Shown here piece by piece: positions 668 to 50,636 of a stretch of DNA of 64,000 bases (position 1 is the first letter of the stretch; each line of letters begins with the position of its first letter). Origin of the DNA: a virus; IMG/VR virus record IMGVR_UViG_3300036791_000462, positions 43,111-107,110 of that record; one strand, given 5' to 3'. The translations under genes and the position numbers were made by a program. The notes under the pieces are model-generated. The model worked only from the letters and a program-made list of their open reading frames with translations. It was not told where the DNA came from and did no database searches.

Positions 668-714
668 CTCCTCGGTCGTTTCTCTACATCCAGCTTAGCA
701 CACAACGCGCGTTA
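668..714 (-). promoter_or_regulatory. Repeated cassette: palindrome 696-714, extended -10 (TGCTAAGCT), CGACCGAGGAG
   Basis: TAGCACAC-AAC-GCGCGTTA; the upstream gene's stop is at 712-714. Confidence 0.75.
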
Positions 715-981
715 GAAGCAGGTGTCGCAGGTGCAGTGTGGCTGCTTGCCGCTTCTGCAGGTCGCCATCGCTTTGTGCCTCGGCATGAACGGGTCGAGCA
801 GCGGGTGCTCAACGATCTCGCGACACTGCTCGCAGTTGGGGTCGTAGATGCCGAGCTTCTCCCAGCGCGCGAGGCGCTCCTCGCGGGTTTCGCTGGCCCC
901 GAACGGCGAGATCGCGAACACGGTCTGGTTGCCGTTCTCGTCAAAGCGCTCGACGCTGCGGTCAATCAGCGGTTGTCCCAT
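712..981 (-). CDS. Small Cys-rich hypothetical protein
   Basis: MGQPLIDRS...CEQC...HCTCDTCF; abuts the neighbouring gene. Confidence 0.5.
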   Translation of the reverse strand: MGQPLIDRSVERFDENGNQTVFAISPFGASETREERLARWEKLGIYDPNCEQCREIVEHPLLDPFMPRHKAMATCRSGKQPHCTCDTCF

Positions 982-1340
982 CAGTCCTGCCACCTCCTGG
1001 TTCCGGCTTCCTCGAACTCCTCGCGGGTGATCTCCTGCACCTCGGCGAGCGGCACGAACCCCGGCTCGCCACGCGGCTCCATCACCGAGTAGCACCACGC
1101 ACAGAAGCTCTCGCGCATCGACCAGGCGTAGCGGGCGGAGTCGGCATCCTCGCCGTACAGACGGATGCTGTACCCGTAGATCGTGATCGCCTTGGCGGGT
1201 GCCATCGAGACGTACACGATCCCGTCGCGCTCGAACGGCTCCTGCGGGTTGCCGCCCCAGCGGCGTTTGAAGTAGAGCGGCTGGCCGTCGAGCGCGAACG
1301 GCGCGTCCGGCTCGGCCTGGTAGTCGAAGGTCGTGCTCAT
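981..1340 (-). CDS. Hypothetical protein
   Basis: 119 aa ORF in a tightly packed, overlapping gene run. Confidence 0.6.
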   Translation of the reverse strand: MSTTFDYQAEPDAPFALDGQPLYFKRRWGGNPQEPFERDGIVYVSMAPAKAITIYGYSIRLYGEDADSARYAWSMRESFCAWCYSVMEPRGEPGFVPLAEVQEITREEFEEAGTRRWQD

Positions 1341-1573
1341 GCGTTCGCGAGATCGTCGTGCATCCGCCCGATCTCGGTCGCCCGGCGGATCTCGCGCAGG
1401 TCCGCCTGATCCTCCAGGTAGCGGGCGTTGAGTCGCATCGCGGCGATCTCCGCGTCAGCGAGCGACGGGTAGGTCTTCGCGTTCTGGGTGCTGTTCGGGT
1501 AGCGCTGGTCGATCACCTTGAAAAACGGCGTGTTCAGCGCGTAGGTGGTGGTCGCCTCGTATGGCAGGTTCAT
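1337..1573 (-). CDS. Hypothetical protein
   Basis: CGACCGAGGAG RBS upstream; overlap with next gene. Confidence 0.6.
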   Translation of the reverse strand: MNLPYEATTTYALNTPFFKVIDQRYPNSTQNAKTYPSLADAEIAAMRLNARYLEDQADLREIRRATEIGRMHDDLANA

Positions 1574-1978
1574 CTAGCCCTCCTCGGTCGTGGTTTGCAG
1601 CCGGTCGATCAGCGCGTCGATCCGCGCGTCCATGAGATCGCCCAACGTGGGATCCCTGTAGCGCCACGTGGCGAGATCGAAGTCGAAGTCGTAGAAGGCG
1701 ATCAGCGCCCGCTGCGCACGGTCAAGACGCTGGAACGCTCGGGTCGCGTGCGACCGGTTCGCGGGGCTGCGCCCGTCCTTGACCGCCACCACCTGGAACG
1801 TCGCGTCGGCTTCGAGCACCGTGCGCACGAGCGCTAGCTCGCGCCGGTAGAGCTTCGCGTCGTCACCGTCGGCGCGGAACATCCGGCGCTGCTCGGCGGC
1901 GATCAGCTTGACCTTCGACTGCTGCTCGGCGCTGTACGCGCGAGCCCAGGCGACCTTGCGTTTCATCAGCTTGCTCAC
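1574..1978 (-). CDS. Hypothetical protein
   Basis: 134 aa ORF, packed. Confidence 0.55.
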   Translation of the reverse strand: MSKLMKRKVAWARAYSAEQQSKVKLIAAEQRRMFRADGDDAKLYRRELALVRTVLEADATFQVVAVKDGRSPANRSHATRAFQRLDRAQRALIAFYDFDFDLATWRYRDPTLGDLMDARIDALIDRLQTTTEEG

Positions 1979-2154
1979 GCGGCGGTCTGCTCCTCGTAGA
2001 ACCCCTGCGCGCGCTCCTGTGTGGAGAAGCGGTGAACCTGGATCGCCGCGCCCTGCTTGATCGTCACGATCCAGTCGGGCGTCCGTTTGGTGGTCGCGGT
2101 TCGGTGGTCGATGTACGGAGCGGTGACGGTCCGCTCAGAAGTGGTGCTCATCAT
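1975..2154 (-). CDS. Small hypothetical protein (59 aa, below ORF-track cutoff)
   Basis: MMSTTSERTVTAPYIDHR... directly after the cassette RBS; GTGA overlap with next gene. Confidence 0.55.
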   Translation of the reverse strand: MMSTTSERTVTAPYIDHRTATTKRTPDWIVTIKQGAAIQVHRFSTQERAQGFYEEQTAA

Positions 2155-2156
2155 GG

Positions 2157-2214
2157 CTCCTCGGTCGGTGCGGCCTCATCACCGCACCTACATCATAACA
2201 CACGATGCGTGTTA
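2157..2214 (-). promoter_or_regulatory. Repeated cassette (palindrome 2196-2214, TGTTATGAT, GGTGCGG/CCGCACC hairpin, CGACCGAGGAG)
   Basis: TAACACAC-GAT-GCGTGTTA; upstream stop at 2212-2214. Confidence 0.8.
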
Positions 2215-2969: not shown

Positions 2970-3403
2970 GCGGAAACTATTCATGCTTGAATAGTTTGCT
3001 GCAGCTACGAGAAGCGGCCGTTGACCAGAACCAAGCAGATCGCGTACGTCGCAAAGACGCAGAGGAAGTACAGGAAGGTGCGGCTGGTCAAACCGCCCGG
3101 ATGGTACGGCTCAGGCTCGGCAGAGCCCCAGATACGTTGCCGCCGCCGCGATCACGGTCGGCAACCCGATCCAGAAGATCAGCGGGTCCACCGTCACCGC
3201 GAGAATCGAGAGGATCGGAACGGCGACCCAGCGCGCGAGCCCCCACACGGCGCGAGCCTCGGCTCCGTGGTCGCGCAGGCGTTCGGCCAGTTCCTGCGGC
3301 CCCGGTTCTGGGGCGCGCAGACGTTGGCGTTCGGCCTGCTCCTCCAGACGCCGCCGTTCGGCTCTGCGCCCGCTCGCTCTGCCGAGTAGGAGCCAGCCAA
3401 GCA

Positions 3404-4100: not shown

Positions 4101-4533
4101 GTGGCGTCCTGTCCGGCATGCGCTGGATGAACTCGCGCTCGCGCAGCGCCGGGTAGATGCTCGGCGCGTGCTCGCGCCTGCCGTTGCGCCGCCCATCCTC
4201 GTAGGCGGGCGAGCGGTCAAACTCGGGGTCGTCGCTGTGACGCTGGTAGAGCTTGGTCGCGAACTCTGGGGCACCGAACGCGAGCGTCAACGCTGGCTGG
4301 TCGCGCGTGAAGTTCTCCAGCGCGTCAGCCATCCCGTCAGCGAACCCCTGCCCGTACGGGATCAGGTCTTCGTTCAGCAGCGGATCGTTGGGGTGGGGTT
4401 CGCGCTGCTGCTGGTAGCGCATCGCGGCGAACGCGGCGTTTGGTGCGGTGTAGCCAAGCTGCAGCTTCTCGCGGTCGCCGCGCATCAGCGCAGCGGTCGT
4501 TTCGCGCAGCGACATCTCATACGGTTCAGCCAT
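4093..4533 (-). CDS. Hypothetical protein
   Basis: ATG after the cassette RBS. Confidence 0.6.
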   Translation of the reverse strand: MAEPYEMSLRETTAALMRGDREKLQLGYTAPNAAFAAMRYQQQREPHPNDPLLNEDLIPYGQGFADGMADALENFTRDQPALTLAFGAPEFATKLYQRHSDDPEFDRSPAYEDGRRNGRREHAPSIYPALREREFIQRMPDRTPRA

Positions 4534-4539
4534 CCGGCT

Positions 4540-4582
4540 CTCCTCGGTCGGGTAGACCAAGGGTAGCACACGACAGGAGCTA
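4540..4582 (-). promoter_or_regulatory. Repeated cassette (degenerate palindrome 4564-4582)
   Basis: TAGCACAC-GAC-AGGAGCTA; upstream stop at 4580-4582. Confidence 0.65.
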
Positions 4583-4907
4583 CGGGAAACGCATGTCGCT
4601 GTGATGCTTGGTGCTTGACCGACGCGCCGTGAGCCTCACCTCGAAGATCACCAAGGCGCTCATGTCCACCACCCACACCCGGCCCTCGTACGCGGCGCGG
4701 TACGCGGGCTCTGCCCACTGGATCGTACGCTTCCACTCGTGGCGCTCATCGCGGTCATGCGGCCAGCGGATCCGGGCGACCGCCCACGGCCACACCCGGC
4801 TCCAGTCGGTAATCCCCTGCATCTTCTTGCGGCCCAGCAGCACACGAATCTGCTCCGCCGGGGTCATCGCCCGACCCGTGAACTCGTCGGGATGCCCGCG
4901 CGGCAGA

Positions 4908-5639
4908 CTAGCCTGCAGCGGCTCCAGTATCGCCCCCACTTCCTCCGGTCCTTTCATCGTCGGACTGCAAGTCACGCGGAACCCCGAAGTCGGCAGCCAG
5001 TTGCGGGTCGATGGGAGGTGCCCCTTGATCCCACCCCGGCGGCGGTGTCCACGTTTGCTTGCCCGCACCCTTGCGATAGCGCAGCGGTTCCGGGGAGCCC
5101 GCCTCGAACGGCACGTCGATTCGCATCCCGGCGTCACGAATCTGCGTTTCGGTCATCCCCCCGGCCGGTAGCTCACTGGCCTGCGGGGGGTTCGGCAGGT
5201 CGCTGCTTGAGTCCGCTTCGCTCAACTGGTTCAAGTCCTGCAGCCACTGCGGGTCGTCGCCCGCGAAGTCCTCGTCCACCGGTCCTTCGGGCTCGGCGAC
5301 GCCCTGCACCGGCTCGGTCAGACGGTGCCTGCCGCCGACCATCCCGGCGATCTCCTCGGCGCTGGACGGCCACAGGTCATCCTGCGCCTGGGGGTTGGTC
5401 ATCCACCCGTTGTCGTTCTCAGAGAACGTGTCGCCGTCACCCGGTCCTGTCTGGCGGTACGGTGTCGTCCCGTCACGCAGCCAGTAGGTGTAGTCGCCGC
5501 CTTCGTAGTCCGATCTTGGTGGTCCCGGCAGCGGGCGTTGCGGCAGTGTTTGCGACGGGTCCGTTTCGCGGTTGACCGTCCCGCCTGGATCGACTGGTGC
5601 GAGCGGGTCGCGGGCCTCGTCCAACTCGTCGGCCATCAC
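4908..5639 (-). CDS. Acidic, Pro/Asp-rich hypothetical protein coupled to the zeta/NTase effector gene
   Basis: GTGA overlap with 5636..8494; low-complexity acidic sequence. Confidence 0.6.
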   Translation of the reverse strand: MMADELDEARDPLAPVDPGGTVNRETDPSQTLPQRPLPGPPRSDYEGGDYTYWLRDGTTPYRQTGPGDGDTFSENDNGWMTNPQAQDDLWPSSAEEIAGMVGGRHRLTEPVQGVAEPEGPVDEDFAGDDPQWLQDLNQLSEADSSSDLPNPPQASELPAGGMTETQIRDAGMRIDVPFEAGSPEPLRYRKGAGKQTWTPPPGWDQGAPPIDPQLAADFGVPRDLQSDDERTGGSGGDTGAAAG

Positions 5640-14189: not shown

Positions 14190-14378
14190 CTAGTCGATCA
14201 GCAGTCGCTGGCCCATGCCCATCCCCAGGCCGCGTCCGAACCTTTCAAAGCACGGAACGCATTGATACGCCCACGGTCCCATCGTGGTCGCGGCATCGTA
14301 CGCTGCCGGTCGTTCCTTGCAGATGTCGCAGGTCGGTCGTTCGCTGAGCACGTCGGTGGCGGTGTCGTCGTACAGCAC
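14190..14378 (-). CDS. Small zinc-finger protein
   Basis: CDIC...YDAAT..GPWAYQCVPC; follows the cassette at 14387-14433. Confidence 0.55.
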   Translation of the reverse strand: MLYDDTATDVLSERPTCDICKERPAAYDAATTMGPWAYQCVPCFERFGRGLGMGMGQRLLID

Positions 14379-14386
14379 GCGGCATT

Positions 14387-14433
14387 CCTCTCGGTCGGTG
14401 TCCCACCACCAGCATAGCGCACGTCGTGCGTTA
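14387..14433 (-). promoter_or_regulatory. Repeated cassette (palindrome 14415-14433)
   Basis: TAGCGCAC-GTC-GTGCGTTA, -10 TATGCT, CGACCGAGAGGA. Confidence 0.7.
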
Positions 14434-15069
14434 GCGCAATGGTTTGCGCGACACGCCTACGACGCGAGGTCCAGCGACCCCTGGCCCGTCAACCCGCGCT
14501 TCATCTTCTGCACACAGTCGTCGTGCGCGAACACGTCGAGGTAGCGGTACACAACCCGGTCGGACATGTCGCGGCGGTTACCTGACGCGCGCAGCCGCTT
14601 GCGGGCGGTGAAGCACGACGTGGCCTGCCACACCTGCAGCCCATCCGGGTCAATCGGCTTCTTGCAGAAGAAACAGTTCATGGCTCTCCTCGGTCGCGGG
14701 ACATCCCGTCGCGAAATGTACGCGCAGCCGCAGACACCGCCCTTCCAAGACGCACGAACCAGGCTCCCAGGCGTTTGCAGGCTCCCTGAGCCCACCTCAG
14801 CGCCGTGGCGGCGATCCCAGCGACCCACACGGCCCCTGCAGCGACCAGCGCGCCGAGCGCCAGCACAGCCGCCCAGAGGCGCATCAGCACCGTCGGCCGC
14901 TCCAGTTGGATCCTCGGCGGTCCTGTCTGCCACTCCGGTTTGAAGCCGCTGACCCACATCGTTTCGGACCGGTGGCAGCGTTCGCACACGCGCGTCCTTG
15001 TCGGCAGGTCCGAGCCGTTGCGCCAGTCGGAGAACTCGTGGCCGTACAGCGCGCAGCGAACCCTGCCGG

Positions 15070-19997: not shown

Positions 19998-20139
19998 GGC
20001 ATTGCTCCTCGGTCGGTGGGTAGAAAACCAACCCTAGCGTACGCACCTGACGTGTGTTAGGTTTCCCGCAACGAGCGGTCCTGAGTACGGCAGGGGAGCC
20101 GCCTCAAGCCAGCCTGTCGCCCCCGGCAGGCTCGCAGCG

Positions 20140-20185
20140 AACAGGAGCCCCGGTTCTGAGCACAATCAGCCGGGGCTCCTGTTTT
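20140..20185 (+). terminator. Strong hairpin with T tail
   Basis: AACAGGAGCCCCGG...CCGGGGCTCCTGTTTT. Confidence 0.65.
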
Positions 20186-21995: not shown

Positions 21996-22277
21996 TCATC
22001 GTCTCGATGTGCGCTCGGCGTGCTCGGCGGTGAACTGGTCGGCTTCGGGGCAGTCGGCGAAGTGGTTGAGGTGCAGCGGCAGGCTGTGTTTGCGGGCGAG
22101 GTCGAGGCTGATGCCGCTGAGTGTGATCGCGAGCTTCTGTCCAAGGTCGCGGGGCGCGAGGATCAGCACGTTGCCGTTGTCGGACGGGTTGGTGTTGATC
22201 GGCGCGGTTTTCCCGGCGGCGGTCAGCGCCCACGTCAGCGCCTGGCCGCACGCGGAGCAGTGGTTGAGGTTGTTCAT
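21996..22277 (-). CDS. Zn-binding phage hypothetical protein
   Basis: CSACG..LTWALT..GK..PI...GNV...HFADCP. Confidence 0.55.
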   Translation of the reverse strand: MNNLNHCSACGQALTWALTAAGKTAPINTNPSDNGNVLILAPRDLGQKLAITLSGISLDLARKHSLPLHLNHFADCPEADQFTAEHAERTSRR

Positions 22278-25938: not shown

Positions 25939-26011
25939 GCCGCTGTCGTCTAGCAGGTCAGGACGCCGCCCTCTCAAGGCGGAAGCACGGGTTCGAATCC
26001 CGTTGGCGGTG
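25939..26011 (+). tRNA. tRNA-Glu (CTC), no encoded CCA
   Basis: GCCGCTG/TGGCGGT acceptor, CCGCC-CTCTCAA-GGCGG anticodon arm, ACGGG-TTCGAAT-CCCGT T arm. Confidence 0.9.
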
Positions 26012-26014
26012 CTC

Positions 26015-33932: not shown

Positions 33933-33942
33933 TCTACCTATT

Positions 33943-38695: not shown

Positions 38696-40789
38696 TCAGT
38701 GCTTGCCGTTGCCGTTGGCTGCCGCTTCGGCGAGCATCTGGTCCACGACCTCGCCGATCTCCTCGTCCCAGAAGCGCATGATCTCCTCGACACGTTCGGG
38801 GCTCAGGCCCTCGTCGGCTGCGGCCTGCTGCATCTGCTGTCCCTGTCCCTGGTTGCCCTGGTACTGAGACGAGAAGCCCTGAGCGCCGTACGGGTTCATC
38901 TCGCCGTCGGGGCCTTGCCCCGGCACCATCGCCTGCGGCGCGAACGGATTCGGCCCGGACGGAATCAACGGTGGTGCTGGCCCTCCGCCGCCGCCGGGTT
39001 GCGCGTCGGTGGGGGGAGGTCCGGCCATCTGCTGGGCCATCAGCGGATCGACATACCCCTCAGGAAGGATTCGCTCGACGGCGGCGGCCGGGTCGGCGAG
39101 TTCGAGCCCCTGGCCGAGCGCGACAGCGAGCAGCGTCCGGCTTAGCTCAAGGTTGGTGTTGTTCGGATCGAACGTGCGCGCCAGGTTCGCGATGCTGGTT
39201 ATCAGGTCGGACATCTGCCGCTTGAGCGGCGAGGGCATCGAGAACTCGTAGCTGAGGTTGCGTTCCGTGTCCTCCTCATCCTCCGTCTGGCCGTGGTAGG
39301 CCTCAGTCAGGCCCTGCGCGCCGTAGACGGCGGTATCCATCGGCTCGGTCATCGAGGACGGCGGCTCTGTCTGTGCGGGTGACGGTGGCGTCGCGCCCTC
39401 CCCGCCGGGCACCTGCTCGCCGGGCTGCTTGGACTTCAGCTTCGCGCGTTCCTCCGGGGTCAGTTGCGTCGGGAGCGTCCCGGCGTCCACCGCCTTCTGG
39501 ATCACCCGGTCTGTGAACGTGCGAAACAGGCCCTCGAACAGTTCCTGGAACGCCTCGACCTTCTTCATCACCGGCAACTCCAGCGACGCAGCGGTCGCAA
39601 GGTTCGCGTTTGACTGGTCGCCGAGATAGTGCTGCGGCCACGTTCCGGCGGAGATCTGGGAGCGGATCATCTGCGCGTCCTGGGACGCTTGCGCCGCCTG
39701 GGTGGAGACGGAGAACGGTTCGGTCGTGACGCCCGCTGATTCGTTCAGCATCGACGCCGGTCGCGGCCCTGGTGTGATCACCCCCGCGTCCGGCGAGTCA
39801 ATCGACGTGGCAGCGAGCGTCGAGGTGCGCGACAGTGCCTGCGCGGCGATAGCCGCGACCTGCTGCGGAGAGCCCTTGACAGTTCTCCTCATGATGAACG
39901 CTGCCGCTGCCTGGGTCATGTCCACCCGTGCGGCCATGAAGTCGTTCAGCGCCGCCATCCACTTGACCATTCGGCGCATCGCGGGGATGCCGAACACCTG
40001 CTCGGTGCCCCGGTTGATCGCGATGTGGTAGACGAGCCCTTCGCCGAGCTTCTCCGGTGGGCACGGCGGATCTTCGGTCAGCAGCAACCCTGTTTCGGAG
40101 TCGGTCGCGGCGAGCGACTGGTAATACTGGACGACGGGCTGACCGCCCTGCTGCAGGCTCGCCGCCGACTTCAGGCTGACGCGGTCCATCGTGTAGTCCC
40201 ACTGGTATTCACGTCTGCGGGCGACGTAGTAGAGGACGCGCAGGCGGTTCTGGGAATCGCGGACGGCGTCCTCCACGAGATCGTGGTTGAGCATCCCGAG
40301 CTTGACCTTCCCGTCGTCGCCGTTCTCGAAGAACAGGATGAACAGGTTCGACTGAAGCACCAGGTCGGTGCAGAGCGCCACCTGGGCGGGGAACGTCGTC
40401 AGCGCCGCCATGTTGTCCGGATCCGACCACGCCTCGTCCACGACTTCCTGCACCTTCTCGTCCACGCACTTGGGCTTCGGGACACCGCGACCAAAGATGA
40501 ACTGGCAGGAGATGTCCACGTTCGCCCCGGCGACGGGATCCTGAATCCAGACCATCCGGGCCTGCGCGGCCATCTTCCGGCGCTCGATAGCCTTGACCTC
40601 CTGCGGCTGCCCGCCGATCTGGTCAAGGACGTAGTAGCCGAGCATGTCGAGTTCCTTCTGCATCGCCCGGCGCTCGACATCGCTGGCCTCAAGCAGTTGC
40701 AGGCGGTCCTGGTCAACGACCGTCTTGCCGGTGCGCTGCTCGACGGCCTCCTGGAGCTTGCCGATCAGGCCGCTACTTCCCCGCGCCAT
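38696..40789 (-). CDS. Portal protein
   Basis: DPVAG..VD....FIFGRG, HIAINR....FGIP, PQHYLGD..NANLATA.SLELP; position between TerL and MuF. Confidence 0.85.
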   Translation of the reverse strand: MARGSSGLIGKLQEAVEQRTGKTVVDQDRLQLLEASDVERRAMQKELDMLGYYVLDQIGGQPQEVKAIERRKMAAQARMVWIQDPVAGANVDISCQFIFGRGVPKPKCVDEKVQEVVDEAWSDPDNMAALTTFPAQVALCTDLVLQSNLFILFFENGDDGKVKLGMLNHDLVEDAVRDSQNRLRVLYYVARRREYQWDYTMDRVSLKSAASLQQGGQPVVQYYQSLAATDSETGLLLTEDPPCPPEKLGEGLVYHIAINRGTEQVFGIPAMRRMVKWMAALNDFMAARVDMTQAAAAFIMRRTVKGSPQQVAAIAAQALSRTSTLAATSIDSPDAGVITPGPRPASMLNESAGVTTEPFSVSTQAAQASQDAQMIRSQISAGTWPQHYLGDQSNANLATAASLELPVMKKVEAFQELFEGLFRTFTDRVIQKAVDAGTLPTQLTPEERAKLKSKQPGEQVPGGEGATPPSPAQTEPPSSMTEPMDTAVYGAQGLTEAYHGQTEDEEDTERNLSYEFSMPSPLKRQMSDLITSIANLARTFDPNNTNLELSRTLLAVALGQGLELADPAAAVERILPEGYVDPLMAQQMAGPPPTDAQPGGGGGPAPPLIPSGPNPFAPQAMVPGQGPDGEMNPYGAQGFSSQYQGNQGQGQQMQQAAADEGLSPERVEEIMRFWDEEIGEVVDQMLAEAAANGNGKH

Positions 40790-40939
40790 CTGGGACCACC
40801 ACCCTCCACCCTTCGAGGCGCGCGCTGGGCACGCACTCGATCTCGCAGTTGAGCGCGTCCTCGATCACGGCCTGGCCGCTTTCTGGTAGATCGAGGACGT
40901 ACACGAGTTGGCGCTCGTTGGTCAGATACAGCCGCTCGG

Positions 40940-41308
40940 TTAGCGGTCGTGTTCTCGGTCCGTTAGCCACCGGTCGCGCTCCTGGGCCTCTGCGGCGAGC
41001 GCCAGCGCGTCGTTGCGCTCACGATCTTCAGGGTGCCCGGCGGTCAGGTCGCCGTGGCGGTTCAGTAGTGGGCGGACGGTCTTGGAGGCAATGTAGGCCT
41101 CGCGGTCTTTGCGCCATGTCGGGCAGGTCTGGTAGCCCTCGGCGTTGAAGCAGTACGCCGCTAGCGTCGAGGGGTCGTGGCGGCTGTCGATCACGTCTGA
41201 GGTGATCCGGCAAGCGCACCCCGTGCCACCTGCTGCCTCAGCCACGAGAGAGCCTGCGGGGCACGGGGGTTCGTTCGGATGGGGAACGACGATGCGCTCG
41301 TACTCCAT
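40940..41308 (-). CDS. Cys-containing hypothetical protein
   Basis: 122 aa upstream of portal. Confidence 0.5.
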   Translation of the reverse strand: MEYERIVVPHPNEPPCPAGSLVAEAAGGTGCACRITSDVIDSRHDPSTLAAYCFNAEGYQTCPTWRKDREAYIASKTVRPLLNRHGDLTAGHPEDRERNDALALAAEAQERDRWLTDREHDR

Positions 41309-41740
41309 GCGGCCACCTTACCGCCGCTCAGAGCATCTTCCTCAGAGGAAAATCTCTCCCCGGTCGCGAGCGGCATCGTGTTTCGCCGGGGAGCCGGTAC
41401 GGGCCGCGATGCCCGCCCTGCGAGTGTGACGCATTGCCTGCTCGCGGGAATTTGCGCCCGCCTCCAGGTTGCTCCGCTCTCACTGTGCAAGCTCAGCCTA
41501 ACACATCACGTGCGATAGCGGTCGAGTGCTTCGGCGGCGATCTCAGCGAACCGCTCCAGCGCGACGCGGTAGTGCTCGCGCTCGACGCTGAGCCTGAGGA
41601 TCTCGGCGGCGAGGCGCTTCGCGTCGGTGAGCGCTTCCCCGGAGTCGCAGTAGGCGTCGGTGCCGGGGGGACCGTCGGAGTAGAACTCCACCCGCGCGAT
41701 CACGTCATCGACCGACTCGTCCCTGCGCCCCGGTTCAGAG

Positions 41741-42088
41741 TCAGGCATCCTCCACAGTGTCGCGCCTCAGCTTGGTGATGACCTCATCGAATGTTCGGTG
41801 CAGACGGTCGTCCCATCCAGGCGGCATCTCCAGTTCCTCGGGTCGCATCGCCTCGCGCATCAGCTTCAGGCGGATCGCGATGCTGTCCCAGCCGTAGCGC
41901 CACAGCCAGCCGACGCACACGACCTCCTTCTCGGCCTGCGACTGGTGGCAGGCGAAGACCGGAGCCCCGAACTGGTCGTCGGTGGTTCGCACGAGTTCTT
42001 CAGCGAGGTCCAGCGAGAAGTTGGGGATCTCGTCGGCGTGCTGGTCGATGCGCCACGGACACGATGGGCAGGGCTGCCGCTCGCTCAT
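41741..42088 (-). CDS. DUF6283-like Cys-rich phage protein
   Basis: PCPSCPWR...FACHQS....CVGWL. Confidence 0.6.
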   Translation of the reverse strand: MSERQPCPSCPWRIDQHADEIPNFSLDLAEELVRTTDDQFGAPVFACHQSQAEKEVVCVGWLWRYGWDSIAIRLKLMREAMRPEELEMPPGWDDRLHRTFDEVITKLRRDTVEDA

Positions 42089-42601
42089 TTCGATTGCCTC
42101 GCATGCTGCCAGCAGTAGTCGCTGTCGTTGGCTTGGGTCCGCTCGCACCGAATGCCAGCCTTGGTGGTCGCTTTGCAGCGCACGTCCTGTGCCAGGTCGT
42201 AGGTGCTCCTACCCCACTGGCGCTGGCGTGCCGGGACGACCTTGAGCGGGCCGGGGTTGATGTTGAATCGACCGGCGCTTTGACCCACTGTCGCGCTCGT
42301 TGTCGCCTCGGTCGCCGCCGCGCAGGACGAGCACATCTGCACGCTGATCAGTCCGGGAATCGAACTGGCGATCCGCAGCGACGTGGTGGCCTCGGCCGTG
42401 CAGCAGCCGACGACGGTCGGGTGGTTGACCGAACACAGGCAATGGCAGCCCATCAGCCCGGTGTCCTTACGTGGGTCTTGCCGGTGCGCTCACGCACGCG
42501 GCGGATCTCGCGGTCGCGGATCTTGATCGTCGGGCACCAGCGGTCATCGACCCGCCAACCCCAGCGCGCTTTGCGGACCTGGATCACGCCACTCTGGCCC
42601 A

Positions 42602-43093
42602 TCAGTGGAACTCCACGAGCCCGTCGTCGGCTGCTAGCTCGAACGCCCGCCGCCAGGTGACGTACTCCTCGTAGTAGCTCCCTGGCGCGTTGTCGTCGCG
42701 CGCCTGCTCGTCATGCTCGGCGAATGCCTGAGCGATTCGTTTGGCCGGACCGGGTCCGATGATCCCCTCGTTGTCGGCGAAGTGGATCAGTTCGAAGAAC
42801 GGCTTGTCGGCGTACTCCTCGGGGTTGTTCCAGGCCGTGCTGGCCGGGACGCCGAGCGCCACATGGCTGAGCCAGTCGCGGAAGGCGTTGTAGCTGCTGT
42901 AGCTGCCCGCCGGGAAGTCGAACCGCTGCTCGTAGGAGTAGTACCCCGCCTTGCAGCCGTCGGCGCGGTCGGCGAAGTCGCGGTTGGGGTAGGCGTACTC
43001 GTACCCCTGGTCGAGCATGTCGTCGTAGTTGTAGCCGTCGCCCTCGGCAGTCATGAACCTGGCCTTGCTCAGCGCGGTCACATCCAAACCCAT
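42602..43093 (-). CDS. Conserved hypothetical protein
   Basis: MGLD...GSYSSYNAFR...PFFELIHFADNEG.IG...V.FH. Confidence 0.65.
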   Translation of the reverse strand: MGLDVTALSKARFMTAEGDGYNYDDMLDQGYEYAYPNRDFADRADGCKAGYYSYEQRFDFPAGSYSSYNAFRDWLSHVALGVPASTAWNNPEEYADKPFFELIHFADNEGIIGPGPAKRIAQAFAEHDEQARDDNAPGSYYEEYVTWRRAFELAADDGLVEFH

Positions 43094-43324
43094 CAGAGGA
43101 TCCCCTCTCGTTCTCGTGCGTAGCTGATCAGTGCGTCTCGCGCCTCGGCATACGCGGTGATCCGCCGGTTGATCTCATGGGCGGCTTGTTCACGGGCGTC
43201 CGGCTCGCGCGTGTCCACGCCGAGCTTGCCCTGGAGCCCGTCGATCATCGCTTCGGCGGCGGTCATGTAGGCGGTGGTCAGGCCCAGGAGCGTCAGCCAC
43301 TCCTGGACCATCGGGTCGCTCACC

Positions 43325-44038
43325 TCAGGCATCGTCCCGCCTCGCGCACCGCGAACAGGTGATCGCCCCCTCGGTCTTCTCGTACAGGGACGAGCGTCGC
43401 AGCAGCGCTCCGCACACCAGCCGGGTCGCCCCGTCGATCTGGGCAGCGAGGTGGACGTTCGTCCCCTGTCGTCCGTAGAGCTTGATCCGGAACGTGTCGG
43501 TGGCGGCGTCGAGCGCGGCGCGCTTGGCGGCTTTGCGCTCGCGCTCACGCTGCTCCCACCGTGCCGACTCGGGGTCTTGAAACGCGACGTGCCCGTAGAA
43601 GTTCACGTCGAAGTAGTCCACCTGGACCTCTGAGCCGTCGTGGTTGTAGGCGTTGTGGATCCGTTCCAGGGTCATCTTCGCGACGGCGGCCTCATCGGTC
43701 AGGATGCTGTGCGCGGTCGCTCCCTCACGCGCGTCGCCACGCGCGGCGCACCACATGTTCGGGCAGCCGGTCGCGACGGAGCTTCCGTCTTCGAACGTGC
43801 GGCGGCTGCCGGGGACGATCCCCTCGCACTCGGTCCAGGCGTCGGCGCAGTCCTTGACGCGCACGTTGATCGAGCTTCCCCCGGAGAAGCTCTCGCTGAC
43901 GACGCTGTACTTCCAGCGCTCCGGGAGCATCCCGTCCCTGATCGCGCGTTTGATGTCAGCGCGGATCAGCTTCGCGATGTCGGTGGTCGAGAGCCCTTTC
44001 TGCTGCTCGTATTTGTAGCCGTAGCTGCGTTCGTACAT
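43325..44038 (-). CDS. LPD29-like (large-polyvalent-protein-associated) domain protein
   Basis: IAKLIRADIK...KYSV....FSGGSSINVRV...YNHDGS....DYFDVNFY. Confidence 0.7.
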   Translation of the reverse strand: MYERSYGYKYEQQKGLSTTDIAKLIRADIKRAIRDGMLPERWKYSVVSESFSGGSSINVRVKDCADAWTECEGIVPGSRRTFEDGSSVATGCPNMWCAARGDAREGATAHSILTDEAAVAKMTLERIHNAYNHDGSEVQVDYFDVNFYGHVAFQDPESARWEQRERERKAAKRAALDAATDTFRIKLYGRQGTNVHLAAQIDGATRLVCGALLRRSSLYEKTEGAITCSRCARRDDA

Positions 44039-44044
44039 CAGTGT

Positions 44045-44103
44045 CTCCTCGGTCGTGCGACCTTCTCTGGCCGCACCTACATCATAGCACACGTCGTGCG
44101 TCA
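44045..44103 (-). promoter_or_regulatory. Repeated cassette (palindrome 44085-44103)
   Basis: TAGCACAC-GTC-GTGCGTCA, TGCTATGAT, GTAGGTGCGG leader, CGACCGAGGAG; upstream stop at 44101. Confidence 0.8.
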
Positions 44104-44228
44104 CTGGGTGGTCACGATCAGCGCCGCGACCACCATCAGGAAAGCGACAGCGAACGCGCAGTACGCGAGTGCGTAGGCCACCGTGTCGGAGGTCAGGAAC
44201 CAGTCGATGAAACGGTGGAAGCGTTCCA

Positions 44229-44873
44229 TCAGAATTGCGGCCCTTCCGCGACGGCGTCGTTCGCGGCGTCGTTCGCGGCGTCGCGGCGCTCCTGGCGCTT
44301 CTCCTCCAGGAACTCCTGCCACTCGTCGGCGTCGGTCGGCTCGCCCTTCTCGTCAACCTCGCCCTCGTACTCATCGGCGAACTCCGACTCGTCGGCGTCG
44401 GGGTCGTCCATGCCCTCGATCTCATCGGCCATCGACTCGATCTCGTCGGCGGCGGACTCGCACGCCTCGGCCTTCTCGCGGATCTCCTCGCTCTGCTGCG
44501 TCTCGTGCCCGAAGCCGTCTTCCATGTTGTCGGCCGATTCGGTGTAGCTCTCGCTGGCCTCGCGCACGCCGTTCGCGTACTCGCGGACGATCTCGGCCAG
44601 GTCGGTCAGGGTCGCTTCGGGCACCTGCGCGAGCGCGTCTTCGGCGGCTTCCTGCGCGGCGTAGATCGTCTGCAGGTGCGGGCTGGTGGTCTGGTCGGAC
44701 GGGCGGATCCGGCAGTTGGCGCAGAAGTTCTTGCGCTGGCTGTAGCGGCCGATCCGGTTCGCGAACCACTTATACGGCTGGCCTGGCAGGATCTCGGTGC
44801 CGCACTTGATGCAGCGGCGGCTGTGGCCGTCCTTGCGCCCCTTGGCGCTCTTGACGTATGTGACTCGGGCCAT
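44229..44873 (-). CDS. Zn-finger + highly acidic coiled-coil protein
   Basis: CIKC...CANC then a long D/E-rich helix. Confidence 0.6.
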   Translation of the reverse strand: MARVTYVKSAKGRKDGHSRRCIKCGTEILPGQPYKWFANRIGRYSQRKNFCANCRIRPSDQTTSPHLQTIYAAQEAAEDALAQVPEATLTDLAEIVREYANGVREASESYTESADNMEDGFGHETQQSEEIREKAEACESAADEIESMADEIEGMDDPDADESEFADEYEGEVDEKGEPTDADEWQEFLEEKRQERRDAANDAANDAVAEGPQF

Positions 44874-45083
44874 CGTTCTCCTCTGGTGGTCAGTCGCCGT
44901 CGTTGCCCCTCAGGGCCTCGGACAGCGAACGGGTGAGCATCTCCTCGGCGCGCGCCGCGTCGCCCCGGCGGAGCCAGTAGTCGTGCGACTCGCGTCCCGC
45001 CTGCTCCAGGTAGTCCCAGTAGCTCTCGCCGCCGTAGTTGGTGCGCTGCGCGTCGCGAGCAGCCTGGACCTCGTAGGTTTTCA

Positions 45084-45407
45084 TCACGCCTCCCTGGTGA
45101 TCGCGTCACCGAAGTCGTAGGAACGGAAGCTCGACGCGCGGTAGGCAACCTCGCCGACCTCGTCGGCGTAGACGTTGCGCTGCTCGCCCTTGATCCAGAC
45201 CTTCGCGCCGCGCTTGAAGACGCGGCGGACGACGTAGGTGTCGTCCCAGTCGAGGTCCACGGTGACGCTGTAGCCAGCGCCGACCTTCAGCGTGACCCCG
45301 GTGTCGCGGCGTTCGATCCTTCCGCCGCTGATCGCGAGGATGTTCATCCGCCCGATCTGCACAACGGTTTGTTGCACGTCGCACGAGCGAAACGTTTCGG
45401 TTGTCAT
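45084..45407 (-). CDS. Hypothetical protein
   Basis: Follows cassette; QIG...LAISG...DDTY.V...E..NVYADE. Confidence 0.6.
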   Translation of the reverse strand: MTTETFRSCDVQQTVVQIGRMNILAISGGRIERRDTGVTLKVGAGYSVTVDLDWDDTYVVRRVFKRGAKVWIKGEQRNVYADEVGEVAYRASSFRSYDFGDAITREA

Positions 45408-45413
45408 GGCATC

Positions 45414-45473
45414 TCCTCGGTCGTTGGAGCGGCTCTCTCACCGCACCTACAGCATAGCACAGGTCGTGTGCTA
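45414..45473 (-). promoter_or_regulatory. Repeated cassette (palindrome 45455-45473)
   Basis: TAGCACAG-GTC-GTGTGCTA; upstream stop at 45471. Confidence 0.8.
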
Positions 45474-45823
45474 GCGGATGCGACTGACGCCACGTTGGCG
45501 GTCGTCGGACGGCCACGCTCGCCAGCAGACCATCGGGATATCGAGATGAAGCTCGAACGCGGGTTTGCGACCGCGCAGCTTGACGAAGGCGTACGCGCGC
45601 ACGTGCGGGTGCTCGACCTGCACCTGGTCGATGTGCTCGTGGATCATCACGAACTGGAAGGTGTTGATCCCCTGCGGGTCGAGGCGCTTGACGAGGTGCG
45701 GCGGTAGCTGGCGGTTGTAGCCAGCGGCCCTGGCGCGCTGGATCGCGGCCATCAGTTGCTTGTAGTTGCACCAGCGGCCTGCCTGCACGTCGCCGGGGAG
45801 CTTCTGGATCAGGTCGGGGTCAG

Positions 45824-46780
45824 TCATCGGACTAGCTCGAAAACCCTGCGCTTGAAGATCAGCGGCTTGCCGTCCGGACCCTTGACGTACGGGGCGATCC
45901 AGATCTGGCGGTAGATCGTGCGCCTGGTCCCGTCGTCGTCGCGCTCGATGTACGGCTGGTTGCGCCAGTGGCCCTGCACCATCCAGCGGTGCGACCACTG
46001 AACGTCACGCTCGTCACCCTCGTACTCGGGCGTGTTCTTGGCGCGGCGCAGGGTGAACACGACAACCTCGCGGATGTCCCGCCAGGTCGCCTTGGCGCGT
46101 TTCCAGACCGGCCGGGCGGCGCGTTCGCGGAACGGGATCGCGACTTCCTGCTGGCAGAGGCGGAAGAAGACCTTCACGTGCGCGAGCACGTCGCGGATCG
46201 TTTCGTCGTCGTCGTAGACCTTGGATGCCTGCTCGAAGCGCATGAACGTCGCGTACTCCAGCACCAGGTCGGACCCTCCGACGCGGCTGTCGTGGTAGAC
46301 GGCGTCATCCACCGGGTCGCCGTCGCCCCGGTGGGAGTAGAGCGCGATCAGCAGCCCGGTGCGTTCGGGGTTGATGCTCCACTCGAACGCGCGGAACGGC
46401 ATCTGCAGCCCGCGCGTGTCGGTGACGTACACCGGCTTGGCGAAGTAGGCGAAGCCGTCGGGGACCATCAGGTCGGTCAGGATCAGCGGCTCGGGTCTGA
46501 ACTTCTCGGCGGCGAAGTCGATCAGTTCGACCAGGTCGCCGCTGACGTAGAACGGGTCACACTCAGGCAGGCTGGTCGTGACGAGGTGCACCAGGTTGGA
46601 CGCATAGTCGTCCAGGTTCACGTTCGTGAAGTCACCTGTCAGCGGGTCGTACGCGCCCGCGCGGATCAGGGCGCGCACGAACCCGTCAAGGTACTCGCGC
46701 CCCTCAAGCGTGCCGAACGAGCGCAGCAGCGATGTCTGCGCGTCGAGCGCTGTGTCCCACCCTTCGTTGCGAACAGTCAC
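45824..46780 (-). CDS. Conserved phage hypothetical protein (GHWR motif)
   Basis: SHRWMVQGHWRNQPY...IWIAPYVKGP. Confidence 0.7.
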   Translation of the reverse strand: MTVRNEGWDTALDAQTSLLRSFGTLEGREYLDGFVRALIRAGAYDPLTGDFTNVNLDDYASNLVHLVTTSLPECDPFYVSGDLVELIDFAAEKFRPEPLILTDLMVPDGFAYFAKPVYVTDTRGLQMPFRAFEWSINPERTGLLIALYSHRGDGDPVDDAVYHDSRVGGSDLVLEYATFMRFEQASKVYDDDETIRDVLAHVKVFFRLCQQEVAIPFRERAARPVWKRAKATWRDIREVVVFTLRRAKNTPEYEGDERDVQWSHRWMVQGHWRNQPYIERDDDGTRRTIYRQIWIAPYVKGPDGKPLIFKRRVFELVR

Positions 46781-46804
46781 GTCAGGTTCCTCGGTCGGTA
46801 CTGC

Positions 46805-47230
46805 TTACCTGTCAGTGTACTCAAGCTCGAAGTAGCGCGCGACACGCGGGTCTTCGCGCATCCCGTCCAGTCGTGCGAACACCTCATCGAAGTAGGTGCG
46901 CAGCCCCTTCTGGGAGAACCGGGCGACCGGCTCTGAGCGCGTCAGCCCAAGCCCCTCGAACAGGGTGTAACTCTGTGAGGTGCCGATCCGTCGTCCGTCC
47001 TGGTAGATCGTCTCCTCGGTGACGCGGCTGATTGACGAGTAGTAGCTCCGGGGGCTGGTGTTGCCGCTGAAGTAGTTGATGCCGCCCTTCGTGTAGCCGA
47101 CGCGGAAGCTGGCGTACTCGCGGCGCTCCTCGCCGTCGCGTCCGCCGTTGTCGGTGCTGACAAGAAAGTCGGCGGTGATCGTCCGCGCGTTCGTGTTGAC
47201 GGTGATGCGCGGTTCGGTGGTGGTAGTCAT
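46805..47230 (-). CDS. Hypothetical protein
   Basis: CGACCGAGGAG RBS. Confidence 0.6.
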   Translation of the reverse strand: MTTTTEPRITVNTNARTITADFLVSTDNGGRDGEERREYASFRVGYTKGGINYFSGNTSPRSYYSSISRVTEETIYQDGRRIGTSQSYTLFEGLGLTRSEPVARFSQKGLRTYFDEVFARLDGMREDPRVARYFELEYTDR

Positions 47231-47274
47231 GGTTCTCCTCGGTCGTGTTGGTCAGGCGGTCGCGGCCCGGAAGA

Positions 47275-47694
47275 TCACCCGTAGACGATCTCTCCGAGCA
47301 GCGCGACCTGGGCGATCACGTCGGCAGCATCAGCGTCGATGTTCCCGGCGTCGTTCTCAGCGTCGGCGACCATGATCATCGCCCGCAGCCGGTCGTTGAT
47401 TCCGATCTCGCCGCGCTTGATCTTGCCGAGCCCTCGCGCGACGGCGTCGAAGTCAAGGTCGAGCCCCTCGTCCTTGTAGCCCGTCTCGTCGTCGTTCATC
47501 TCGTGCAACGTGGCGCGTGTGTCGTCGCCCTGCCGCTTGCCGGTGTAGACGCTGAGCTTGCCGTCGAAGATCCCGGAGTAGTCGCCATACTGGTACTGGC
47601 TCACCTGTGCCCAGTAGCCGGTCCCGCCCTCGACGGCGGTGGTGATGATGTCGGCGAGGAACTGTTTGCGCTCCTCGGTTCTGGCTCGTGTCAT
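47275..47694 (-). CDS. Conserved phage hypothetical protein
   Basis: TAVEGG.GYW...IDADAAD.I.Q.AL.GEIVYG. Confidence 0.65.
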   Translation of the reverse strand: MTRARTEERKQFLADIITTAVEGGTGYWAQVSQYQYGDYSGIFDGKLSVYTGKRQGDDTRATLHEMNDDETGYKDEGLDLDFDAVARGLGKIKRGEIGINDRLRAMIMVADAENDAGNIDADAADVIAQVALLGEIVYG

Positions 47695-47898
47695 CGGTTA
47701 CCTCCCCAGCTTGTCCAGCGCCACGCTGATCCGCGCGGCGGCTGAGCCGATCCTGGCGCGCTCGCCGAGGGTGGATCCGCGTTCGTCCAGCACCTCGCCG
47801 AGGTCCATCACCTCGCTCAGCGCGGTCTTGAGTAGCTCGCGGACGGTGAGTTCGCCGAGCGTTCGTGTTGCTCGTAACGTCTCCTGTCCCATGTGTTC

Positions 47899-47956
47899 CT
47901 CCTCGGTCATTGCGGTCTTCTGACCGCACCTACATCGTAGCACACATCGTGCGTCA
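47899..47956 (-). promoter_or_regulatory. Repeated cassette (palindrome 47938-47956)
   Basis: TAGCACAC-ATC-GTGCGTCA, TGCGGTC/GACCGCA hairpin; upstream stop at 47954. Confidence 0.75.
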
Positions 47957-48547
47957 GTCGCTGGGAAGGTACAGGCCCTTCGGGTTGCGCGTCGTGGTCA
48001 TCCCGACGATGTCGATGGGCACGTACCCCTCCATCCCCGACTCGCAGATCGCGTCGATGATCTCTCCCGCAGGCCAGCCCTCGACGGGCGCGTGCGCGAG
48101 CGCGATCCACCCCGCCTCGTCCAACGGCCCGAGCATCTCCAGGAACGCGAGCGCCGACGGCGAGAACGGCTCGCGCGGCGTCAGCTTGATCACCGGGCCG
48201 GTTGCCGAGTTCGGGCGGCCCCACGCCCAGATCAGGCCCTTGCCGTGCGGACGGTGCCGAACGTTGGCTTTGCCGACCCAGACGCCCTGGACGGTCTGGT
48301 CGTAGCTCCAGAGCGTCGGGTCAACGATCACCGCCTTGTCGGCGTAGCAGTCGTCGCCGAGCACCAGCCAGGAGTGCTGGCCGGGTACGCCCTGGCAGAA
48401 CCCGCGTGCTACACGGCAGGTGCCGAAGCGCCCGGAGCGCATCAGCGCGACGCTCGCGGCGTGGCAGCGGTGTGCCCAGTCGTCCAGTGGCGCGAGTGTC
48501 TGTTCAGCCAGGTCGGCTAGGGCGACCCGGAAGGGTTCGTAGGTCAC
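47954..48547 (-). CDS. Hypothetical protein with Cys-His-Asp (transglutaminase-like) spacing
   Basis: HRCHAAS...QHSW...VDPT; GTG start inferred. Confidence 0.5.
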   Translation of the reverse strand: MTYEPFRVALADLAEQTLAPLDDWAHRCHAASVALMRSGRFGTCRVARGFCQGVPGQHSWLVLGDDCYADKAVIVDPTLWSYDQTVQGVWVGKANVRHRPHGKGLIWAWGRPNSATGPVIKLTPREPFSPSALAFLEMLGPLDEAGWIALAHAPVEGWPAGEIIDAICESGMEGYVPIDIVGMTTTRNPKGLYLPSD

Positions 48548-49019
48548 CGCCCGTACAGCGCCTGGGAGCGCCTGTCGCGCGCCTCGGCAGCGAGGTCGCG
48601 CACCGGTGCGGTCTTGCCCGTCTTGACGAGCGATGCCAGGCCCACGAGCCCGATGAACTCGCCCTCCAGTGTCTGGACGTAGCACATGCCCATCGTCCCG
48701 TTGGCGGGGCAGCCGAACGGCTGGGTCTTCTGCACCTCGCGGCCTGCGTAGGCCATCACGCGAGCGCTTGTCAGGTCGAGCAGCCCTCCCGGCTCAAGCC
48801 GGTAGACAGCCTTGTTCTTGGTCTTCGCCATCACGCCACCTCCTCCATTTCGATCTCGGCCTCGTAGAGCGTCTGGCCCAGCCGGTCGGCGCAGCGTGCG
48901 CACGACAGGTACCAGTCGAGCACCGGGTGCTTGCACGCGCCCTCTGCGGCCCGGTCGCATTTCGCGAACGCTTGGCAGCGGACGTTGTCGCTGGCCTCCA
49001 GTGTCTTCGTCATGTCGCC

Positions 49020-49084
49020 CTCCTCGGTCGGTTGGTGCGGCCCCTCTGACCGCACCACCAGTATAGCGCACATCGTGTGCTCTA
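49020..49084 (-). promoter_or_regulatory. Repeated cassette (palindrome 49064-49082)
   Basis: TAGCGCAC-ATC-GTGTGCTC, TATACT, GGTGCGG/CCGCACC hairpin. Confidence 0.8.
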
Positions 49085-49285
49085 GCTGACGCTGCTGAGG
49101 ACGCCGTCCACGATCTGGTAGTTGACGGGCTCGTCGCTCTCGACAACGCGCGTGTCGCGGACCAGGGTCCAGCGCATGGACAGGTCGCGAACGTACATCT
49201 GCGCCTCGGCCTCGGTCGCGAAGCGCAGCGCGTTCCCGGCCCACGTGCCGCTGTCGTCAGCGATCACCTCTGCTTTGAAGCTCAT
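49082..49285 (-). CDS. Small conserved phage protein
   Basis: WAGNALRFATEAEA..Y..DL..RW..V.DTRV.ESD.PVNY. Confidence 0.6.
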   Translation of the reverse strand: MSFKAEVIADDSGTWAGNALRFATEAEAQMYVRDLSMRWTLVRDTRVVESDEPVNYQIVDGVLSSVS

Positions 49286-49879
49286 GTTTCACCTCCCCTC
49301 TCCACTAGCTCGACAAGGGTGTCGGGATCGACCCAGCGCAGCGTGGTCCGCAGCCCCTGTGGGGTTACGTCGAGCCGCGCGAGCTTGACCTTGTCGGAGC
49401 GCTGGCCGTCGAAGTAGATGACCGTCTCGTACAGCGCCTTACCGCCGACGATGCGGATCCGCTTGTCGCCCTCGTAGCCGATCAGATCCCACGCGCGGAC
49501 GACGCCCCACCAGTCCACGGTGTTGGTGCAGGTCGTACATTCGACGCGGCCGTCCGGCCGGTTGATCGTGTCGCGGTCTTCGTAGCAGACCGCGCACCAC
49601 ATCAGCGGTCCCCCCTCAGCGATGCGCGCACGGCCTGGCGGCTGCGCTTGTCCTTGCGCACGCGGCCCTTGCCGGACTTGCCCATCGCCCCGGCGCTGTT
49701 GCGCTGGTGGGCAGCGACGGCGACCCAGGAGCGAACCTTGGTCTGTTTGGCGCTCATGCCCACAACTCCTCATCGAAGTGGTGCCAGAGCGGCGAGCGGC
49801 CGTACTGCGAGTCGGTCCACGGCGCGTCGAGCGCGTTGATCCAGCTTTGGATCCATGCCCTGAGCTTTCTCATCGCTGC

Positions 49880-49943
49880 CTCCTCGGTCGGTGGGGGCGG
49901 GGCCTCTCTCCCGCACCACCAGTATAACACACAACGTGTGTTA
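49880..49943 (-). promoter_or_regulatory. Repeated cassette (perfect palindrome 49925-49943)
   Basis: TAACACAC-AAC-GTGTGTTA, TGTTATACT; upstream stop at 49941. Confidence 0.85.
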
Positions 49944-50571
49944 GCTGCGTGCCCGGAGAACTGCGCGGCCCTTGTCGGTGATCCGCCAGCGCTCATGCGC
50001 GTTGCGCGACACGAGCCCGCGCTCCTCCAGCCGCCAGAGCACGTCGGAGCGGACGCCCAGCCACTTGGCGGTACGTCCGTTGCCGAACTCCAGCGAGCCG
50101 AGCACGGTCATCTGTCGGCGCGTCAGCTTCACGAGTCGTCGTCCTGCGCGTAGGGGTCGCGCCAGCCTCTGTCTTCACCGGCTCGCCACGCCGCCCACGA
50201 ATCGAGTTCGTCTTCGGTATCCATCGCGAGGTCGAGCAGCCGGTCGCGTTCCGCCAACTCGTCGTCAGTCAGCTTGCGCTGGCGCGGCAGCCCCCACCCG
50301 TAGTCCTGGCTGTCCCAGGTCATCACGCCTCCAGCGCCCGAGCGAACCCGAACGTGGCCTTGGTCTTGGTGGTCGCGGCCTCGGTCAGCATCACCGCGCC
50401 GACGTTGATCGTGATCGTCTCGCCGTCGGTCGTGATGAACTGGCGGATCCCGTCGTCGTCGCCCATCGTCCGGCGCTTCAGCGTCGAGCCGATATCGGCG
50501 GCGCGGCCCTTGACGGTCCTGGCGAGCCCGTTTGCGAAGTACAGAGTGGTCGCTGCGTCCATCCTTCAGGC

Positions 50572-50636
50572 CTCCTCGGTCGGGGGAGATTGCGCCCTTG
50601 GGGGCGCACCTAAAGAATAGCACACATCGCGCGCTA
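50572..50636 (-). promoter_or_regulatory. Repeated cassette (palindrome 50618-50636)
   Basis: TAGCACAC-ATC-GCGCGCTA, TGCGCCC/GGGCGCA hairpin; HNH stop at 50634. Confidence 0.75.

Follow-up and report, generated by a model that had tools for sequence, protein, structure and literature searches.

We analysed the final 64 kb (positions 43,111 to 107,110, hereafter the window) of the 107,110-bp virus record IMGVR_UViG_3300036791_000462, in which a 19-bp palindrome, TAGCRCAC-N3-GTGYGCTA, forms the 5′ end of a repeated cassette of 45-75 nt and often coincides with the stop codon of the gene upstream. The palindrome overlaps an extended -10 sequence and is followed by an optional hairpin, the leader CGACCGAGGAG and a start codon, with which a block of genes opens. 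The genome has a G+C content of 66% and carries nearly all of its genes on the minus strand; the genes of the window that end on palindromes are all on that strand.

The phage is known from metagenomes only. The isolate phage collection contained no DNA-level match to the genome, and among isolates the closest large terminase shares 27% identity with the gpA-type enzyme encoded here by a 583-aa gene (51226-52977). About 25 related contigs were found in IMG/VR, including genomes of 110-125 kb, with direct terminal repeats in two, and the same cassette is present in these approximately 25 metagenomic contigs. The genomes of four relatives were compared at full length. A metagenome scan and a second protein query added no further related contigs, and an exact 22-mer search of viral contigs found nothing. 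The copies in the window, with the gene junction at each, are as follows (SD, Shine-Dalgarno).

660-714, minus: short-type cassette with no hairpin; palindrome 714-696, -10 TAAGCT, leader at 677, ATG at 662; TAA 714-712 is the stop of gene 712-981
2152-2214, minus: long-type cassette; palindrome 2214-2196, -10 TATGAT, hairpin, leader, ATG at 2154; gene 2212-2409 terminates on TAA 2214-2212
2899-2969, minus: cassette with no coincidence; the upstream gene ends at 3111 and an AT-rich, terminator-like hairpin intervenes
4531-4582, minus: cassette whose left arm is degenerate; gene 4580-4939 terminates on TAG 4582-4580
14376-14433, minus: cassette with no coincidence; the stop of gene 14457-14681 lies 24-26 nt upstream
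25544-25568, plus: palindrome, -10 and hairpin, no SD leader; about 370 nt upstream of a tRNA-Glu gene
33940-33962, minus: weak copy, -10 TAAAAT; the 530-aa gene 33943-35535 crosses the palindrome
44036-44103, minus: long-type cassette; -10 TATGAT, ATG at 44038; TGA 44103-44101 is the stop of gene 44101-44229
45405-45473, minus: long-type cassette; ATG at 45407; TAG 45473-45471 is the stop of gene 45471-45827
47890-47956, minus: long-type cassette; TGA 47956-47954 is the stop of gene 47954-48547
49011-49084, minus: long-type cassette; ATG at 49013; the upstream stop, TAG 49084-49082, is shifted 2 nt upstream from palindrome position 1 (49082)
49871-49943, minus: long-type cassette with a perfect 8/8 palindrome containing AAC...GTT; TAA 49943-49941 is the stop of gene 49941-50132
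50560-50636, minus: long-type cassette; TAG 50636-50634 is the stop of the HNH endonuclease open reading frame (ORF) 50634-51305
57336-57450, both strands: divergent promoter region (predicted); a cassette on the minus strand (palindrome 57412-57394) adjoins a -10, hairpin and leader that point the opposite way on the plus strand
62409-62497, both strands: single palindrome 62447-62465 between genes 61404-62411 (minus) and 62495-62872 (plus)

Anatomy of the cassette

The consensus of 108 unique copies, drawn from more than 20 contigs, is T-A-G-C-G/A-C-A-C followed, after a 3-base spacer, by G-T-G-T-G-C-T-A. The 8-3-8 spacing is fixed, and positions 4, 6, 14 and 16 are conserved in nearly 100% of the copies, the first triplet being the least conserved part of the palindrome (T 62%, A 78%, G 77%). 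Positions 15-16 read TG and positions 18-23 TAnnnT, so that positions 15-23 together give TG-n-TAnnnT. Because these bases persist in copies detected by the left arm and leader only (T15 80%, G16 91%, T18 86%, A19 89%, T23 85%), the right arm was assigned as an extended -10. The asymmetry G5/T15, the most frequent one (74/108 copies), follows from the TG that an extended -10 requires. A second hairpin is present in 44 of 83 copies; its stem sequences vary freely while pairing is kept, a covariation unlike the sequence conservation of the palindrome. The composite of upstream stop, promoter-like -10, stem-loop, SD sequence and start codon holds across the 108 copies, any activity being predicted. 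By its make-up the element is a putative promoter of the -10 type over which a dimeric regulator would bind, most likely at the symmetric 8-3-8 arms.

Alternatively, the main role of the palindrome could be that of an RNA hairpin at which transcription arriving from upstream is terminated or attenuated; the stop codon of the upstream gene would then lie in the base of the stem. Several copies are predicted to fold into an 8-bp stem closed by a 3-nt loop, at one copy (50636) a T-rich run comes next and a terminator scan gave a hit, and G5/T15 would form a G-U pair in the sense RNA. There is also precedent in the PeSLs, composite promoter and stem-loop elements of T4-type phages, where stem-loops overlapping the -10 are proven terminators (PMC2839356). 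However, T15 is already explained by the TG of the extended -10, the U-tract is missing in most copies, and several predicted folds do not contain the palindrome hairpin. The outer pairs are often mismatched, pair 3-17 being A-C in 24 of the 108 copies, and the stem does not covary as the second hairpin does. A role mainly in termination is thus improbable, and we retain the promoter/operator assignment.

The leader CGACCGAGGAG matches the genome 40 times, as compared to 5.7 times in shuffled sequence. It precedes approximately 30 start codons genome-wide, many of them without a palindrome (for example at 1590, 14696, 20015, 21437, 24068, 47245, 55600 and 56626 of the window), and only its GGAG portion resembles a Shine-Dalgarno sequence. 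We take the leader to resemble the start-associated sequences of Cluster K mycobacteriophages. Two other explanations of the cassette were discarded. A design that closes all three reading frames was rejected, as merely 17 of the 108 cassettes do so before the start codon; a likeness to the CIRCE heat-shock operator, which shares TAGCAC, was dropped, the arm spacing being 9 there and 3 here.

Several copies have particular surroundings. Directly upstream of the cassette at 2969, an AT-rich hairpin with a T run (2970-3010), unusual for a genome of 66% GC, looks like a classical intrinsic terminator preceding a promoter. The plus-strand copy at 25544-25568 is correctly oriented for the genome's only tRNA gene, tRNA-Glu(CTC) (25939-26012, plus strand), and tRNA was the sole known RNA family found in an Rfam scan. 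Both lie within a 578-nt stretch without gene call (25437-26014), where the GC skew flips sign (around 20000-26000). The sequence between this promoter-like copy and the tRNA may represent a non-coding RNA or else an extended leader of the tRNA. The copy at 57412 has no co-directional upstream gene because it lies in the divergent region, the plus-strand half of which is predicted to drive genes 57466-57934. In the single palindrome at 62447-62465, TAnnnT and a leader follow each arm.

Stop codons at the palindrome

The preliminary description of the window had counted eight of twelve co-directional copies that begin on the stop codon of the preceding ORF, and both the minus-strand ORF ends and the sequence bear this out. 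The eight ORFs end at 712, 2212, 4580, 44101, 45471, 47954, 49941 and 50634, with TAA, TAA, TAG, TGA, TAG, TGA, TAA and TAG, respectively. The 2-nt shift described for the stop at 49082 was confirmed (TAG 49082-49084), the copies at 2969, 14433 and 57412 complete the twelve, and the copy at 49943-49925 does read C-TAAC-N11-GTTA, as had been noted. The upstream ORFs are real genes, most of them with homologues in relatives. The junction at 2214, for example, is conserved in three relatives, with offsets of the stop from palindrome position 1 of 0, 0 and -6; gene 44101-44229 is conserved in the relative L011; homologues of gene 47954-48547 end on a palindrome in three relatives and overlap the next gene in four. 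Elsewhere in the same genome, exact cases were found at genome positions 21201, after a gene of 1353 aa, and 36954, and a non-case at 37746.

The description had also held that the coincidence exceeds the one third expected from reading frame. This is true of the present genome, where the probability under that null is 0.019 for at least 8/12 and 0.004 for at least 10/14. It did not extend to the relatives: exact coincidence was seen at 13/47 junctions (28%) in the four full-length relatives and at 23/67 (34%) over all related loci, or in 13/34 cases when counted by upstream-gene family (P = 0.33). Because of these figures, the excess above one third is specific to this genome, picked after the fact, and is not a rule of the family. 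Close abutment of stop and palindrome, on the other hand, is robust across the family: 49 of the 67 stops fall on the first triplet or no more than 11 nt upstream of it, and no other single position is nearly as common as offset 0.

The choice of stop codon shows which of the two sequences supplies it. Stops at offset 0 are TAG in 17 cases, TAA in 8 and TGA in 4 (25/29, or 86%, TAG or TAA), whereas the other genes of five genomes use TGA in 708 of 956 cases (74%; odds ratio 17.8, P = 4e-11). The first triplet is therefore supplied by the palindrome and not by the gene. The preliminary description had proposed a comparison of C-termini with homologues, and the outcome agrees with this: in gene families 14, 58 and 63 the same C-terminal residue precedes either the TAG/TAA of a palindrome or a TGA overlapping the next ATG, and in gene family 10 a tail of 3-8 residues is lost at cassette junctions. 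Among orthologous loci, the spacing between the terminase gene and its cassette takes the values 0, -1, -5, -6, -10 and -11. Since it varies in this way, offset 0 marks the minimum of a spacer of variable length; it is not a fixed requirement.

Genes that meet the cassette end in one of several ways according to frame, with offset 0 in 23 copies, offset +17 in 5 and read-through in 6. The +17 cases, such as gene 33943-35535 in the window, stop on the TAA of the -10, and the palindrome is translated as ...THDVC. The read-through cases run to the next start, the leader being translated as ..TEE... One small gene family (L019 14240-14467, L022 14310-14537, L021 15424-15648, L024 13533-13706 and L018 6683-6925) translates an entire short-type cassette, with palindrome, -10 and leader, and ends overlapping the next start; for this reason, the putative promoter appears to be embedded in the coding sequence of these genes. 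At ordinary co-directional junctions the median gap is -1 nt.

These observations can be ordered as follows. The left arm mirrors the CTA or TTA of the right arm with which the -10 begins, and because of this the cassette opens with TAG or TAA. As genes are packed without spacer, an upstream gene meeting the cassette in frame 0 ends on its first triplet and can do without a separate stop. In the other frames a gene has its own stop slightly farther upstream, ends at the TAA of the -10 or reads through to the next start. Deletion together with selection for compactness would then push junctions toward offset 0. Because of the stop usage, the C-termini, the variable spacing, the frame outcomes and the median gap at ordinary junctions, we read the coincidence as the promoter-junction form of zero-spacer packing. 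It is likely, in our judgment, that a repeated promoter/operator cassette begins with the palindrome and donates stop codons in a compact phage, as a result of genome compaction. Trimming of genes to the nearest rare stop triplet, which the preliminary description had offered as its second choice, is accordingly the reading that the evidence favours.

Several results weigh against this interpretation. The excess of exact coincidences in this genome over one third (10/14, P = 0.004) is one of them, and another is that stops at -12 to +20 favour frame 0 (16:6:2 by upstream-gene family), a bias for which compaction accounts only if selection against read-through is assumed. The bias would fit nonsense mutations arising a short way upstream of an ancestral stop at offset 0, mutations that stay in frame 0, and would also fit selection against ORFs running into the operator. 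On the promoter side, the cassettes have no conserved -35 box, and a sigma-70 consensus scan of 44000-51400 returned no -35/-10 pair. As for the regulator, the sole candidate is a 109-aa MerR/excisionase-like helix-turn-helix protein (54929-55258), which is conserved in all relatives within a block upstream of the terminase gene. Two divergently transcribed small proteins, one of which looks like a helical membrane protein, gave no DNA-binding signal in Pfam, PHROGs or Atlas, and the regulator search likewise gave nothing for the remaining neighbouring small proteins.

Gene order, breakpoints and recombination

Cassettes are inherited with the downstream gene, as seen in families 20, 17 and 11, where the upstream genes differ. 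The best match of a cassette is the orthologous copy in another genome in 86/100 cases. No concerted evolution or gene conversion was seen among cassettes, their identity being 0.517 within and 0.492 between genomes.

Large terminase and portal genes are usually adjacent. Here, approximately 25 small, mostly unannotated genes and seven cassettes (window 40789-51226) lie between the terminase gene and gene 38696-40789, which we take to be the portal gene; its sole isolate match is an unannotated protein. This region of about 10 kb is hyperplastic, and its content and order differ in every relative examined. Gene order among relatives is thus far from fixed, the fixed order having been named in the preliminary description as the outcome that would speak against shuffling. 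The HNH ORF 50634-51305 is inserted after the large terminase gene. An HNH homing-type endonuclease between the terminase stop and the first cassette is found in some relatives only (L010 2483-3067, L019 11778-12227), and in the near-identical pair L012/L010 the exchange of the HNH gene extends through the cassette and ~65 nt into the gene that follows.

In such a region the cassettes could have an additional, PeSL-like role, compatible with the promoter/operator reading: as portable homology for homologous recombination, at which a cassette and its genes would be gained, lost or exchanged as a block, they would have built the hyperplastic region in which they are concentrated among small variable genes. 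The copies cross-align at 80-84% over approximately 62 nt, and the phage encodes a RusA Holliday-junction resolvase (58204-58752), next to which lies a Mom-family protein (58727-59485). Precedent exists in the T4-type PeSLs (PMC2839356, PMC4122927) and in the 17-bp palindromes of Cluster O mycobacteriophages (PMC4351075). The proposal that breakpoints fall at the palindrome was upheld insofar as many homology blocks begin no farther than 5 nt from palindrome position 1. Their starts pile up at -5 to +4, with none at -100 to -11; this sharp 5′ edge is, however, expected regardless, because the palindrome is conserved in every copy. Genome-wide, junctions with the motif are broken more often than others (100/127 versus 595/1165, every pairwise odds ratio being above 1), but these pooled counts include related genomes repeatedly. 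Within the hyperplastic region the difference disappears (77.6% of motif junctions broken, versus 75.0% of ordinary gene junctions), and this part of the proposal was not sustained. In the closest genome pair, G004/G007, 13 of 66 indels touch the motif and 53 do not, the motifs making up ~9% of junctions; broken junctions in the closest pair number 9/15 with the motif and 57/116 without, which is not a significant difference. No clean event in which a cassette-gene-cassette arrangement is matched by a single cassette was found among the relatives, and the missing concerted evolution also speaks against exchange between copies. Enrichment of breakpoints at cassettes is modest, and the motif is not a privileged breakpoint. 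We regard a PeSL-like role as rather unlikely. With similar reserve, the cassette might be seen as a plug-in module, the 5′ stop triplet of which would let a promoter/operator/gene unit join behind the last sense codon of any gene without spacer, so that PeSL-like exchange, with no dedicated recombinase, would have built the variable 10-kb island; this, too, is doubtful.

The preliminary description had gone further and read the palindrome as an integron-like recombination or capture junction. On such a reading it would be an attC-type site, at which a dedicated recombinase cuts to take up gene cassettes. As with attC sites, imperfect palindromes lie here at gene boundaries and can overlap the stop, gene content varies in blocks among relatives, and AAC...GTT is present in two copies of the window. 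However, attC sites are approximately 60-140 nt long, with outer and inner repeats and conserved AAC/GTT core sites, and integron cassettes are promoterless ORFs with the site at their 3′ end. The element here is 19 bp long, has no inner repeats or extrahelical bases, and reads AGC...GCT at consensus positions 2-4/16-18, AAC...GTT being confined to those two copies. It bears SD signals and a -10, as a predicted promoter, upstream of the gene that it would drive, with which it is co-inherited. Most breakpoints lie at ordinary gene boundaries. The recombinase search that had been suggested was negative: no tyrosine or serine recombinase was detected in this genome (G000) or in five relatives (G004-G008, three of them 99-100% complete), PF00589 (Phage_integrase) and PF00239 (Resolvase) remaining unmatched while the controls were positive. 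The integron analogy fails on every defining feature tested, and a dedicated capture site of this kind is extremely improbable.

Because no such integrase or resolvase was found and the motif-plus-leader pattern had 0 occurrences in 185,579 prokaryote genomes, the data suggest that the phage is virulent and that no prophages represent its host. The phage is thus a compact, uncultured, high-GC and probably virulent one.

Relation to known elements and significance

The closest match in form is the PeSL of T4-type phages, which runs from the upstream stop through a promoter and stem-loop to the SD sequence and start, clusters in hyperplastic regions and mediates shuffling (PMC2839356, PMC4122927). 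Like the PeSL, the present cassette is a repeated composite intergenic element from upstream stop to downstream SD and start, and it is concentrated before small genes of unknown function in a hyperplastic region (seven copies here). PeSLs have sigma-70 -35/-10 boxes in AT-rich DNA, with proven promoter and terminator activity (PMC2839356, PMC4122927), whereas the present cassette has no -35, lies in DNA of 66% GC and carries an operator-like 8-3-8 palindrome overlapping an extended -10. Recombination between PeSLs has been demonstrated, including mini-circles (PMC2839356, PMC4122927); the cassette described here is known from sequence comparison.

Cluster O mycobacteriophages carry many intergenic copies of a 17-bp palindrome (7-3-7, TGTTCGG...), and indels have been ascribed to recombination between them (PMC4351075). 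Most of these sites are not near promoters and a transcriptional role was thought unlikely by the authors, who also found an HNH gene insertion immediately behind the stop of the terminase gene (PMC4351075), as in the present phage. Both are multicopy inverted repeats with a 3-bp spacer in high-GC genomes, read as sites of a dimeric protein and located mostly in short intergenic gaps of one transcription direction. They differ in sequence, and no relation to stop codons was reported for Cluster O. Stoperators of Cluster A mycobacteriophages, which are temperate, are asymmetric sites at which a monomeric immunity repressor blocks elongation (PMC6550527, PMC9283540). They, too, are short regulatory sites present in many copies over the length of a phage genome and oriented mostly one way with respect to transcription, but the element here is symmetric, is part of a predicted -10 promoter and belongs to a phage that shows no integrase or other sign of lysogeny.

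The element joins a known kind of repeated phage regulatory cassettes, now in an uncultured clade, with ordinary compaction as the probable mechanism. In form, it extends the PeSL idea from AT-rich T4-type phages to a GC-rich lineage. It also serves as a caution, since a sharp homology edge at a repeated element is by itself no evidence of recombination there. For a clade known from metagenomes only, a conserved cassette of operator, extended -10, hairpin and leader, the first two as predicted, is now defined, which can be used by annotators as a marker of transcription units and as DNA bait for the regulator. A promoter/operator that donates a stop to the preceding gene would be the promoter-junction counterpart of the ATGA overlaps between coupled genes, and shows how regulatory and coding signals are packed together in a very compact high-GC phage.

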